IMG/VR virus record: IMGVR_UViG_2925891887_000006
Span: 1-51,857 of that record
Strand: one strand, 5' to 3'
Length of the DNA stretch: 51,857 bases
Source: a virus
Lineage: Duplodnaviria; Heunggongvirae; Uroviricota; Caudoviricetes
Shown piece after piece: positions 7,822 to 50,849 of the stretch. The position numbers were made by a program, and so were the translations under genes. Numbering within the stretch: the stretch's first letter is position 1; each line of letters starts with the position of its first letter. Under the pieces are notes generated by a model that saw only the letters and a program-made list of their open reading frames with translations, did not search any database and had not been told where the DNA came from.

Positions 7822-7937
7822 CTTCGTTACCTCATATAACGTGCTGGTCAGACGCCTCGGTGGTGCTGCAAACACTCCGGGGCGTTGCTATTTTGTTTTT
7901 CTGTGTGTAATGTGTCATTACACATAAATACATTACA

Positions 7938-8132
7938 ATGGGTGTAATTGACGTGTCAACACACAAAAATGAAAGACGTGGGAATCCGCCATTCCAGTTC
8001 CGACTTGACCCTGAACTGCGTGAACTGATGGAACAAGCACAACAGCAGGATGGCGATGAATCGCTAGCGGCTTGGATCAAGCGCATTCTACGCAAAGAGT
8101 TACAAAGCCGAGGTTTAGAACCAAAGAATTGA
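7938..8132 (+). CDS. Ribbon-helix-helix (Arc/CopG-like) DNA-binding protein, candidate satellite repressor
   Basis: 64 aa; FQFRLDPELRELMEQA...AWIKRILRKEL fits a beta-strand plus two helices; divergent from the early operon, start embedded in palindromes. Confidence 0.5.
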   Translation: MGVIDVSTHKNERRGNPPFQFRLDPELRELMEQAQQQDGDESLAAWIKRILRKELQSRGLEPKN

Positions 8133-15868: not shown

Positions 15869-16009
15869 TTATCCATTTTTGGGAACTCCTGGCTGATTAA
15901 GTACGTCGATGAGTCGTTTCCATCCGTCACGTAATTTGCGGGTGATTCGTTCAAGTAAAGATTCGGAAGGGCAGCCAGCAACAGGCCACCCTGCAATGGC
16001 ATATTGCAT
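15869..16009 (-). CDS. Small hypothetical protein (46 aa, MQYAIAGWPV...)
   Basis: AAGGAG 7 nt upstream of the internal ATG; stop overlaps the next small ORF. Confidence 0.4.
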   Translation of the reverse strand: MQYAIAGWPVAGCPSESLLERITRKLRDGWKRLIDVLNQPGVPKNG

Positions 16010-16070
16010 GGTGTGCTCCTTATTTATACATAACGAAAACGCCTCGAGTGAAGCGTTATTGGTATGCATA

Positions 16071-25986: not shown

Positions 25987-26171
25987 ACGCCACAATTCAA
26001 ACGATACCAGAGCTTCTTATCCAGACACGAGGCAATCAGACCGAAGTGGCGAGGATGCTTTCCTGCGCAAGAGGAACAGTGCTCAAGTACAACCGAGACA
26101 GCAAAGGTGAGCGTCACGTAATAGTTAACGGCGTCCTGATGGTCAAACAGGGCAAGAGGGGTAGACCATGA
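25983..26171 (+). CDS. ninH: NinH
   Basis: GNQTEVAR...SRGTV.KY motif as in lambda NinH. Confidence 0.7.
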   Translation: MNATIQTIPELLIQTRGNQTEVARMLSCARGTVLKYNRDSKGERHVIVNGVLMVKQGKRGRP

Positions 26172-26791
26172 GACTCGAAAGTGTAGCTAAATTTCATTCG
26201 CCAAAAAGCCCGATGATGAGCGACTCACCACGGGCCACGGCTTCTGACTCCCTTTCCGGTACTGATGTGATGGCTGCTATGGGGATGGCACAATCACAAG
26301 CCGGATTCGGAATGGCTGCATTCTGCGGTAAGCATGAACTCAGCCAGAACGACAAACAAAAGGCTATCAACTATCTGATGCAATTTGCACACAAGGTATC
26401 GGGGAAATACCGTGGTGTGGCAAAGCTCGAAGGAAATACTAAGGCAAAGGTACTGCAAGTGCTCGCAACATTCGCTTATGCGGATTATTGCCGTAGTGCC
26501 GCGACGCCGGGCGCAAGATGCAGAGATTGCCACGGTACAGGCCGTGCGGTTGATATAGCCAAAACAGAGCAGTGGGGGAGAGTTGTTGAGAAAGAGTGCG
26601 GAAGATGCAAAGGTGTCGGCTATTCAAGGATGCCAGCAAGCGCCGCATATCGCGCTGTAACGATGCTAATCCCCAACCTTACCCAACCCACATGGTCACG
26701 CACTGTTAAGCCGCTGTATGACGCTCTGGTGGTGCAATGCCACAAAGAAGAGTCAATCGCAGACAACATTTTGAATGCGGTCACACGTTAG
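26168..26791 (+). CDS. Q: Late antiterminator Q (lambda type)
   Basis: 207 aa; essentially the lambda Q sequence as recalled. Confidence 0.9.
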   Translation: MRLESVAKFHSPKSPMMSDSPRATASDSLSGTDVMAAMGMAQSQAGFGMAAFCGKHELSQNDKQKAINYLMQFAHKVSGKYRGVAKLEGNTKAKVLQVLATFAYADYCRSAATPGARCRDCHGTGRAVDIAKTEQWGRVVEKECGRCKGVGYSRMPASAAYRAVTMLIPNLTQPTWSRTVKPLYDALVVQCHKEESIADNILNAVTR

Positions 26792-26833: not shown

Positions 26834-26862
26834 TTGACTTTTTGAATAAAGTTGGGTAAATT
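26834..26862 (+). promoter_or_regulatory. Late promoter PR' (-35 TTGACT, 17-bp spacer, -10 TAAATT), overlapping qut
   Basis: Sequence matches the lambda PR' region as recalled. Confidence 0.7.
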
Positions 26863-27004: not shown

Positions 27005-27061
27005 TCCCGAAACAGTTCGCAGGTAATAGTTAGAGCCTGCATAACGGTTTCGGGATTTTTT
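27005..27061 (+). terminator. tR' terminator (end of the short 6S-type late leader)
   Basis: TCCCGAAAC...GTTTCGGGA hairpin followed by TTTTTTAT. Confidence 0.75.
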
Positions 27062-27513
27062 ATATCTGTGCAACAGGTAAGAGCATTGAACCCGCAGACC
27101 TCGCGGAATTGGTGAAAGGTGCCGCGCAGTGCTCTTATCGTTGTGGTGAAGCTCAATGGCGAGCTAGCAGATAGGCGACAGTGAAAATACTAGTCATGTA
27201 GCTGACCGCCGCGCGTACTGCAATCGGCAGCGCACCGATGGAAGCCGGTTCGATTCCGGCCGCCACAACCCAAACTGAGCCGTAGCCACTGGCTATCCTG
27301 AATTCATCAGTGATAGTTACGCTGCTGCCTTCTACACATGATCTTCGTGAAAGCGGGTGGCAGGAGGTCGCGCTAACAACCTCCTGCCGTTTTGCCCGTG
27401 CATATCGGTCACGAACAAATCTGATTACTAAACACAGTAGCCTGGATTTGTTCTATCAGTAATCGACCTTATTCCTAATTAAATAGAGCAAATCCCCTTA
27501 TTGGGGGTAAGAC

Positions 27514-27837
27514 ATGAAGATGCCAGAAAAACATGACCTGTTAGCCGCGATTCTCGCGGCAAAGGAACAAGGCATCGGGGCAATCCTTGCGTTTGCAATG
27601 GCGTACCTTCGCGGCAGATATAATGGCGGTGCGTTTACAAAAACAGTAATCGACGCAACGATGTGCGCCATTATCGCCTGGTTCATTCGTGACCTTCTCG
27701 ACTTCGCCGGACTAAGTAGCAATCTCGCTTATATAACGAGCGTGTTCATCGGCTACATCGGTACTGACTCGATTGGTTCGCTTATCAAACGCTTCGCTGC
27801 TAAAAAAGCCGGAGTAGAAGATGGTGGAAATCAATAA
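27514..27837 (+). CDS. S: Holin S (lambda type, dual-start MKM)
   Basis: 107 aa; near-identical to lambda S as recalled. Confidence 0.9.
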
Positions 27838-29451: not shown

Positions 29452-29794
29452 CCATTCCAAAGCCCATCTACTGGTGGGCTTGATAATGAAACCGTGATTT
29501 ACATCCCTCACAATCCAGGTATGTAAAAGCTGGATCATGCGAGAACGGATTTAACTAAATCTGTGCGCCACCAGTTAACGGCAGTACCACGAAACAACCC
29601 AAGCCAGTAAGTGGGGAAATAACACTGGCAGCCACTGAAAGATGAACCTCCTGCCTTATGGCAAAAAAGATTCTTTGTGGTGGCGGACTGATGGAAAAAC
29701 ATCGGATAGAATCAAGCAGTGGCTAGGGTAGCTCCCGAAAAGCGGACTCGTCACCGCCTGCCACTGAATCTATGGCGAACAACTAGACGAGGTT

Positions 29795-50774: not shown

Positions 50775-50849
50775 TGGTGTCCCCTGCAGGAATCGAACCT
50801 GCAATTAGCCCTTAGGAGGGGCTCGTTATATCCATTTAACTAAGAGGAC
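50775..50849 (-). tRNA. argW: tRNA-Arg (anticodon CCU)
   Basis: Minus-strand GTCCTCTTAGTTAAATGGATATAACGAGCCCCTCCTAAGGGCTAATTGCAGGTTCGATTCCTGCAGGGGACACCA; cloverleaf with CCU anticodon and encoded CCA. Confidence 0.92.
50777..50789. repeat. att core within the 3' end of argW (GTGTCCCCTGCAG)
   Basis: Identical 13-mer at 10873..10885. Confidence 0.6.

Follow-up and report, generated by a model that had tools for sequence, protein, structure and literature searches.

A tRNA-like phage non-coding RNA of unusual architecture with a likely dimerisation site

Phage T4 encodes two small stable RNAs, rnaC (species 1) and rnaD (species 2), for which we still know of no function. In Stx phages, the tRNA genes ileZ, argN and argO lie between gene Q and the lysis genes. 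The same slot of the lambdoid genome holds tRNA genes in phage L (tRNA-Asn/Leu) and in Sf6 (PMC8022706), and in Stx-type prophages the Q–holin slot is reported to hold the Hfq-binding Pas small RNAs (bioRxiv 10.64898/2026.05.13.724894). YrlA RNAs, the bacterial and phage Y-RNA-like RNAs, are tRNA-mimicking non-coding RNAs, some of them phage-encoded (PMC4201824). Lambda makes use of RNase III to activate the synthesis of N, through processing of a hairpin in the N leader (Kameyama 1991; Steege 1987; cited after PMC9032294 and PMC5371410). Here we describe a 130-nt RNA module at positions 27140-27269 (+) of a 51,857-nt stretch of viral DNA (IMG/VR record IMGVR_UViG_2925891887_000006, referred to in full as the window), which is a lambda-like prophage. 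We interpret the module as a tRNA-like phage non-coding RNA of unusual architecture, and its sequence points to a likely dimerisation site. Together with its relatives it constitutes a strongly conserved, unannotated RNA gene in an intensively studied phage region, the lambda-type Q–tR'–S interval and the N leader.

A tRNA-type body with one inserted arm

The module folds as a five-way junction of an acceptor-like helix, a D-arm, an extra arm, an anticodon-like arm and a T-arm, and RNAfold returns this junction as the minimum free energy structure both for the module alone and in its context. The closing, acceptor-like helix has 9 bp, formed by the 5' strand GUUGUGGUG (GTTGTGGTG) at 27140-27148 (+) and the 3' strand CGCCACAAC at 27261-27269 (+), which is followed by CCAAAC. 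The D-arm, AGCUC-AAUGGC-GAGCU at 27150-27165 (+), is preceded by two A residues and holds equivalents of A14, A15, G18 and G19, with a C after the GG. The anticodon-like arm, AUCGG-CAGCGCA-CCGAU at 27223-27239 (+), would read as anticodon GCG (Arg), with A33 and C37; a 4-nt variable region, GGAA, separates it from the T-arm, GCCGG-UUCGAUU-CCGGC at 27244-27260 (+), which has a canonical T-loop. Both elements of a tRNA elbow, G18G19 and a T-loop of the UUCRANY type, are present. At tRNA position 26/27, where the D-arm gives way to the anticodon-like arm, the module carries an inserted extra arm, a hairpin of 55 nt (27167-27221, +). This arm comprises a basal 4-bp stem, an asymmetric internal loop (AUAG / GCGCGUA), an 8-9-bp stem and a 20-nt loop, at the centre of which lies the self-complementary hexamer ACUAGU (27189-27194, +), a candidate kissing-loop dimerisation site. 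With 130 nt, five arms and a 9-bp closing helix, the module is not the four-arm cloverleaf of 73-93 nt with a 7-bp acceptor stem that a canonical tRNA forms.

A preliminary description of the stretch, made from its letters, had picked out a T-arm (GCCGG-TTCGATT-CCGGC), an anticodon-like hairpin (ATCGG-CAGCGCA-CCGAT) and the 3' strand of an acceptor helix. Direct reading places the two hairpins exactly where they had been reported, and the 3' strand is real, beginning at 27261. The D-arm and 5' acceptor strand, which had been reported as missing, are both there at 27140-27165, GG dinucleotide included; they were overlooked because the 55-nt hairpin pushes the 5' half of the molecule away.

The same insertion makes tRNA finders blind to this tRNA body. 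ARAGORN in default mode and Rfam at its gathering threshold make no call on the native 27140-27269. With relaxed thresholds, Rfam aligns only the T-arm and acceptor to the tRNA-like domain of tmRNA at 20.2 bits (cut-off 47), and a search of the 4227 models of Rfam 15 with E up to 10 returned just this sub-threshold match and two chance matches. When positions 27166-27222 were deleted in silico, with several junction variants tested, ARAGORN in default mode called a tRNA-Arg(GCG), and deletion of the arm gave the same call in a relative from a pL leader. The module therefore derives from tRNA-Arg: it is a whole tRNA-Arg-type body with one inserted arm. The absence of a tRNA call by covariance models, which the preliminary description named as part of what would speak against its reading, is what ARAGORN and Rfam return for the native sequence, but it reflects the inserted arm and not the want of an RNA gene.

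A covariance model of the module, R1, was built from 31 diverse homologues; it finds the window copy over its full length with 149 bits (E 1e-28), and no second copy in the window. Chance does not account for the T-arm: when up to 3 mismatches are allowed, its 17-mer is present in two places in the window, where 0.14 would be expected, and the second occurrence (50786-50802) belongs to a genuine tRNA-Arg(CCT) at 50775-50849 (-). This gene lies near the window end and may mark the junction between prophage and host; its T-arm, GCAGGTTCGATTCCTGC, approximately matches that of the module of Skatevirus phages.

Two IMG/VR pattern scans and one scan of species-representative genomes gathered more than 150 loci. 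We aligned 69 distinct variants found in lambdoid, P22-like, Skatevirus and 9NA-like phages of Escherichia, Salmonella, Klebsiella and Enterobacter. Across this alignment the six-helix structure has standard pairs in 95.7% of cells, with changes on both sides at 20 of its 37 pairs. None of 500 shuffles reached any of the observed measures, and pairing fell to 27-47% in a control in which the partners were slid by 1-3 columns. Pairing in the acceptor-like helix reaches 98.7%; the second pair of this helix varies (U-A in 35 sequences, G-C in 19, A-U in 10), one acceptor pair alternates between U-A (36 sequences) and U-G (32), and in a further subfamily the acceptor strand AUUGUGAUG pairs with UCACAAU. 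Pairing is complete (100%) in the D-stem, where C-G becomes U-G in 8 sequences, and stands at 99.7% in the T-arm, with both-side changes at 4 of 5 pairs. The anticodon-like stem covaries as well (AUCAG/CUGAU, AUUGG/CCAAU, AUAGG/CCUAU), and in the extra arm both sides change at 8 of the 9 inner-stem pairs and 3 of the 4 basal ones. Read from the minus strand, the numerous G·U pairs would turn into A·C mismatches, which identifies the plus strand as that of the RNA.

The loops hardly change. The D-loop AAYGGC and the T-loop UUCGAYU are near-invariant, the T-loop varying only at its Y, and so are the internal loop of the extra arm (AAUAG / GCGCGUAA) and the anticodon-like loop, C-A-(G/U)-C-G-C-A, in which CGCA is fixed and the wobble position is G or U. 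Compensatory changes and near-invariant loops in at least 69 variants from unrelated phage groups are the mark of a functional RNA under purifying selection and not of a pseudogene. The preliminary description had proposed a degenerate tRNA or tRNA-derived fragment; descent from a tRNA holds, as the ARAGORN call after arm deletion indicates, whereas degeneracy and fragmentation do not, given a complete cloverleaf and its compensatory changes. With its six covarying helices, conserved internal loop and self-complementary loop hexamer, the window copy shows the features of a new RNA family.

How far does the family extend? In BLAST searches, a 143-bp unit at 27127-27269, which includes the module, is 99-100% identical in lambdoid coliphages (HK75 and others), about 95% identical in Salmonella Skatevirus phages with unrelated flanks, and 73% identical in a P22-like phage. 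An identical copy is carried by phage HK75 and by E. coli 55989 (NC_011748). The unit matches 341 of 5426 complete E. coli genomes, in 163 of them over at least 80% of the query, and the module is unannotated in the 30 RefSeq E. coli records listed. The scan of species-representative genomes found it only in Klebsiella, Enterobacter and Superficieibacter and in one metagenome-assembled genome labelled 'Cellvibrionaceae'. In this last case (our locus L130; JAUVQU010000080.1, 4321-4450) the copy is identical to that of the window, and the contig is probably an enterobacterial phage misbinned into the assembly. Public records also label the module as something else, namely as 'polyubiquitin-A', as a 58-nt 'tRNA-Ser' that covers its 3' end only, or as small hypothetical open reading frames (ON470589.1, 19977-20167; PQ186186.1, 21833-21890; coding sequences 053-055 of phage Skate, MH321493.1). 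A full-text literature search yielded no description of the RNA, although an automated catalogue (PMC10690425) of 10,006 candidate RNAs from IMG/VR may already list it, since its 'DNAVirus_2961' sometimes overlaps tRNA-Arg calls.

Leader stems and their cargos

In the window, the module lies between Q (26168-26791) and the holin gene S (27514-27837, +), the start of which is 245 nt downstream. The preliminary description had placed it in a slot where other lambdoid phages have tRNA genes, and the genomes of phage L and Sf6 agree (PMC8022706). The late promoter pR' (TTGACT-17-TAAATT, 26834-26862, +) is a promoter-like site, and no other was found upstream in the window; the module would therefore be read as part of the Q-antiterminated late transcript. 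Downstream of pR' follow the tR' terminator, a hairpin with U-tract at 27005-27061 (+) that is identical to lambda's, and a hairpin domain that abuts the module and that we call P1 (27076-27139, +), with a 13-bp helix of GGUAAGAGCAUUG and CAGUGCUCUUAUC around a variable interior. Aligned with lambda, the region differs only from about 27078 to 27263, the departure of about 185 bp that had been reported before, and it does so in two substituted blocks, each flanked by conserved, mutually complementary helix strands. In lambda the P1 helix is the same and its interior different. All 13 pairs of the P1 helix are formed, with compensatory changes in five loci (L031, L014, L022, L083 and L118). T-arm-like hairpins were seen in the P1 interior of L118 and L021 (AGCGG-TTCGATT-CCGCT and GCAGAG-TTCGATT-CTCTGC).

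P1 and the acceptor-like helix together form a conserved leader 'socket', which consists of ACACAACAGG, the 13-bp P1 and the 9-bp GUUGUGGUG/CACCACAAC helix. About 92 loci, the window included, are of this late-leader type, in which a hairpin or terminator, ACACAACAGG, P1 and the module follow one another, the module without a spacer. In 33 of them a holin of the S-lambda type starts at +245 nt; in others an S21-type or other holin comes next. The 3' end of the acceptor strand (27264-27269) has a copy upstream of P1, UGCAAC at 27069-27074 (+), which reads CACAAC in lambda and in most relatives; a (U/C)(G/A)CAAC motif is kept in all late-leader loci. From complementarity, UGCAAC could conceivably pair with GUUGUG at 27140-27145, which would stretch P1 to about 19 bp with a bulged A and would exclude the tRNA-like fold; covariation in support of this pairing was not found. 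The conserved flank on the 5' side, cagTGCTCTTAtc, resembles boxA, and a boxA or Nus-factor site was considered and rejected: the element is the 3' strand of the P1 helix, and in L014, L033, L031 and L072 it is replaced by unrelated yet complementary sequences.

The socket is older than this module and more widespread. The P1 and 9-bp helices also enclose other interiors, in the late leader of lambda itself, in IME10 and in many unrelated virulent siphophages, namely Sasha and Bas82 (both 9NA-like), DS8, IME207, Gungnir39 and Klebsiella e270.1 (loci L008 for lambda, L001, L002, L004, L007 and L185-L188). R1 matches none of these interiors, apart from a weak 24 bits in DS8. Real tRNA genes (Ser, Arg, Met) directly follow the socket in several of these phages, which supports the earlier remark about the slot, and the late leader of lambda looks like a phage tRNA-cassette leader that has lost its tRNAs. 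We rejected the late-leader and N-leader interiors of lambda as degenerate homologues of the module, as R1 matches their closing helices only. A second socket cargo was noted in DS8 (L007, 1214-1339), IME207 (L185), Gungnir39 (L186) and, between Q and S, IME10 (L187). The loop of its first hairpin, GGCUGA (GGUCGA in DS8), complements that of its last, AGUUCAGCA (AGUUCGACA in DS8), with one compensatory switch seen, and this pairing looks like a Watson-Crick version of the D-loop/T-loop elbow of tRNA.

A second group of about 34 loci has the module in the early leftward leader, after pL and nutL (boxA and boxB). In one cluster of 18 loci an N-like gene begins 25 nt downstream in most; at other pL loci, which are downstream of cI and cro, 49 nt separate the module from a small early-left gene, and these genes are diverse. 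Here the closing stem is extended, GCUUUGG+GGUGUGGUG pairing with CACCACACC-A-CCAAAGC (L010, L006, L059 and others), and one pL subtype lengthens it to 21 bp. The N leader of lambda, ggCUUUGGGGUGUGUG...[about 95 nt]...CACACACCACCAAAGCu, has an identical stem, bulged A included, at the equivalent position, ahead of the ribosome-binding site of N and after nutL; the RNase III cuts, presumably at about +88 and +197, would fall within this closing stem. At locus L010 (leader at 7830-8075) both nutL and the N gene are those of lambda, but the tRNA-like module takes the place of the lambda interior; the predicted fold has a z-score of -4.6.

Outside these two leaders, in virulent siphophages, the module has real tRNA genes as neighbours. 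That of Skate is oriented against the structural genes on its flanks and shares its strand with an adjoining tRNA-Ile, with two promoter-like sites upstream, and in L014 the module comes first in a tRNA cluster. The 3' flank varies with context (CCAAAC, ACUUAA or ACCAAAG). A single subtype of the extra arm can be combined with either kind of flank, as in L018 and L064, so that parts reassort between contexts. The module is a portable 'cargo' in conserved leader stems of the pR' and pL operons, because the 143-bp unit remains about 95% identical between lambdoid and Skatevirus phages while its flanks differ.

Three further elements of the window were noted. Between the module and S, a GC-rich hairpin, GGCAGGAGG...CCUCCUGCC followed by G-UUUU (27359-27393), is shared with lambda and was not called by a simple terminator scan. 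A match to the int-alpA RNA (45.1 bits, above the Rfam gathering score) lies downstream of the lysis genes at 29716-29778 (+), far from any integrase examined. The lambda cIII thermoregulator element is at 15964-16022 (-).

A proposed mechanism and its alternatives

What might the extra arm do? A self-complementary hexamer stands at the same aligned position of its loop in every variant, in six versions: ACUAGU (window), UCUAGA, GCUAGC, UCGCGA, UCCGGA and UCUGGA. The last, found in at least 21 contigs and an Enterobacter genome, can pair with itself only by way of two G·U pairs. Changes at the outer and at the inner positions of the hexamer come in pairs, and the molecule has no segment complementary to all six versions. 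As the hexamer cannot fold on itself and has no such partner, the simplest reading suggested by the sequences is an RNA homodimer held by an intermolecular kissing loop. The six covarying hexamers make it a compact and directly testable candidate. Two other interpretations of the arm were tried and rejected. A pseudoknot in which GCGC of the anticodon-like loop would pair with GCGCG of the internal loop can be drawn, but it fails on variants such as CAUCGCA and GCACG, which do not covary. A type II tRNA with an intron, in which the long arm would serve as anticodon arm and 27223-27239 as variable arm, would place its putative anticodon, which is not conserved, inside a covarying stem; ARAGORN reports the corresponding 'tRNA-Ala(ggc) i(38,38)' only when introns are permitted and the threshold is relaxed.

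We propose the following model, to which we give about an even chance of being right. Transcribed from pR' within the Q-antiterminated late leader, the module would be released by host enzymes of stable-RNA processing, RNase P possibly acting on the stack of acceptor and T-arm (with the elbow) and RNase III on copies with a lengthened stem, such as those in pL leaders. The freed RNA of about 130 nt would pair with a second copy through the hexamer of the extra-arm loop, and the homodimer would then occupy a tRNA-binding host or defence factor in trans as a mimic of tRNA-Arg instead of decoding. That the RNA would not decode is argued from several departures. Position 33 is A in nearly all variants and position 37 an invariant C, in place of U33 and a purine at 37; position 20 is C, against the A20 of bacterial tRNA-Arg; no single register gives an encoded CCA end across contexts; the closing helix has 9 bp; and a large arm sits at the hinge. 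A trans-acting product, as opposed to a cut site, is favoured because conservation extends to features that RNase P can do without, and because the module also occurs where there is no mRNA to regulate, in Skate and L014.

Several points weigh against this model. Lambda has a non-tRNA-like cargo in both stems, and the module must therefore be dispensable for the lambdoid life cycle. The late-leader stem below the module has only 9 bp, so RNase III would need it to stack on P1. With an invariant C35 and G36 and with G or U at the wobble position, the loop looks like a real Arg anticodon, and some interaction with arginyl-tRNA synthetase (ArgRS), even charging, may be possible. The hexamer types follow the subtypes of the arm, which leaves few independent compensatory events, about 4-5.

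Phage tRNAs are used against tRNA-targeting defences, and this prompts our guess at a decoy target, for example a tRNA-binding defence or processing factor. In its fullest form the proposal would be a new class of phage non-coding RNA, a tRNA-Arg mimic cut from the pL or pR' leader by host RNase P or RNase III that joins with a second copy through its kissing loop and, as a homodimer, serves as decoy or sponge for a factor that recognises tRNA, be it a defence nuclease, a toxin, or a processing or charging enzyme; this we put forward tentatively, as a possibility short of an even one. If it were true, the RNase III hairpin of the lambda N leader and the late-leader hairpins would be sockets of a modular system that swaps structured RNA cargos, and a tRNA mimic directed at tRNA-binding defence factors would add RNA-based counter-defence to the phage use of tRNAs.

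First among the alternatives comes a cis-acting processing or 'punctuation' module that recruits RNase P and/or RNase III to separate the leader from the message, the lysis genes or, in the pL copies, N. Cutting would set the 5' end, stability or translation of the mRNA, and the released RNA would be a by-product. The module does occur in the 5' leaders of both long antiterminated operons, at 245 nt before the holin gene (33 loci) and 25 nt before the N-like gene (most of 18); its closing stem in the pL leaders is that of the RNase III site of lambda, where cleavage is known to raise N synthesis; and the unrelated cargos in the socket of lambda, Sasha, DS8, IME10 and e270.1 give the impression that the stem itself matters. 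RNase P, however, needs only the acceptor/T-arm stack, so that the conservation of the anticodon-like loop, the internal loop and the hexamer would go unexplained, and neither the Skatevirus copy, antisense to protein genes beside a tRNA, nor the L014 copy, at the head of a tRNA cluster, has an mRNA to regulate. We regard this alternative as somewhat doubtful.

To our knowledge, no bacterial pathway excises an insertion at tRNA position 26/27, and this weighs on a further alternative, a working tRNA-Arg that is matured, given its CCA, charged by ArgRS, and either decodes CGN codons or resists a tRNA-Arg-directed nuclease, its arm being tolerated or removed. The tRNA-Arg(GCG) call after arm deletion, the location in a slot where lambdoid phages carry tRNAs, and the invariant C35 and G36, which are bacterial Arg identity elements, with a wobble position within the Arg box, would all suit it. 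The bacterial identity set consists of A20, C35, U/G36 and A/G73, with A20 the main determinant for E. coli ArgRS (PMC9976931); the module has C at position 20, and the 9-bp helix and variable 3' flank leave its discriminator ambiguous. As A33 and C37, the long closing helix, the unconserved CCA and the 55-nt arm at the hinge tell against decoding as well, and the Rfam scan detected no group I intron or other splicing signature, we consider a working tRNA improbable.

A DNA-level element, such as a site of attachment or recombination or a palindrome that binds protein, conserved by recombination at the module boundaries, appears very improbable. The 3' halves of tRNA genes are common integrase targets, interiors are swapped between conserved helix strands, as a comparison of lambda with the window shows, and five of the six hexamers are also palindromes in DNA. 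The helices, however, tolerate G·U and not A·C, a strand-specific pattern that points to RNA; the widespread UCUGGA is not a DNA palindrome; and the covariation follows the cloverleaf, not a single inverted repeat. Finally, a decaying, functionless tRNA pseudogene or fragment would be in keeping with the silence of standard tRNA finders, with the one phage record that annotates the 3' 58 nt as 'tRNA-Ser' and with the lack of the module in lambda, but it is hardly credible. Covariation contradicts it (compensatory changes at 20 of 37 pairs, invariant loops), the alignment is not a single recent clone, and the module has spread, at 73-100% identity and with its flanks replaced, across four genera of hosts and among phage groups that are not related.

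Comparison with known systems

HIV-1 DIS is a kissing-loop dimerisation site, and ROOL, GOLLD, raiA and OLE are self-assembling phage-associated RNAs. The module resembles such systems in a loop-exposed, 6-nt self-complementary sequence, variants of which stay self-complementary; it differs in all other features, and its dimerisation is a prediction from sequence.

In YrlA both ends belong to the Ro-binding stem, the tRNA-like part being internal. The module shares with it the character of a non-coding RNA with a tRNA-like D/T-arm unit, but here the ends of the molecule form the acceptor helix, and no Rfam match to YrlA appeared at E up to 10. The tRNA-like domain of tmRNA, the only Rfam family to match, likewise sets a T-arm and an acceptor helix inside a larger RNA. 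Unlike tmRNA, the module has a full D-stem and an anticodon-type arm, and lacks an mRNA-like tag frame, pseudoknots and G3·U70. A tmRNA or mini-tmRNA was rejected on the score (20.2 bits against 47), on the ARAGORN search, which finds none, and on the loop 'frames', which are not conserved among variants.

Like the phage tRNAs of the Q–lysis slot, the module is found where the late operon begins. It has in common with them an acceptor helix, a GG-bearing D-arm, an anticodon-type arm of 5 bp and 7 nt, a 4-nt variable region and a canonical T-arm. It differs from them in its 55-nt fifth arm at 26/27, its 9-bp acceptor, A33, C37, a C in place of A20 and an unconserved CCA. The nearest analogue is T4 species 1 RNA (rnaC). 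Each of the two T4 RNAs, rnaC and rnaD, is a small stable RNA with a length of about 120-140 nt, encoded among tRNA genes and adjacent to that for T4 tRNA-Arg. In rnaC, as in the module, a canonical T-arm (CCGGG-UUCGAAU-CCCGG) is combined with paired ends and with long extra hairpins, in a different layout of arms. Homology to the T4 RNAs was rejected: R1 scores rnaC at 14.4 bits, against 11-16 for the T4 tRNAs, which is generic tRNA likeness only.

The RNase III hairpin of the lambda N leader compares through its frame. The pL copies of the module sit in the stem GCUUUGG-GGUGUG...CACACC-A-CCAAAGC, in the same place between boxB of nutL and the Shine-Dalgarno sequence of N, whereas the interior in lambda is a long irregular hairpin that R1 does not match, and the window copy lies in the late leader after tR', beside P1 and without the extended stem. 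Through its copies in both leaders, the family links the RNase III-processed N-leader hairpin of lambda to stem-enclosed RNA cargos.

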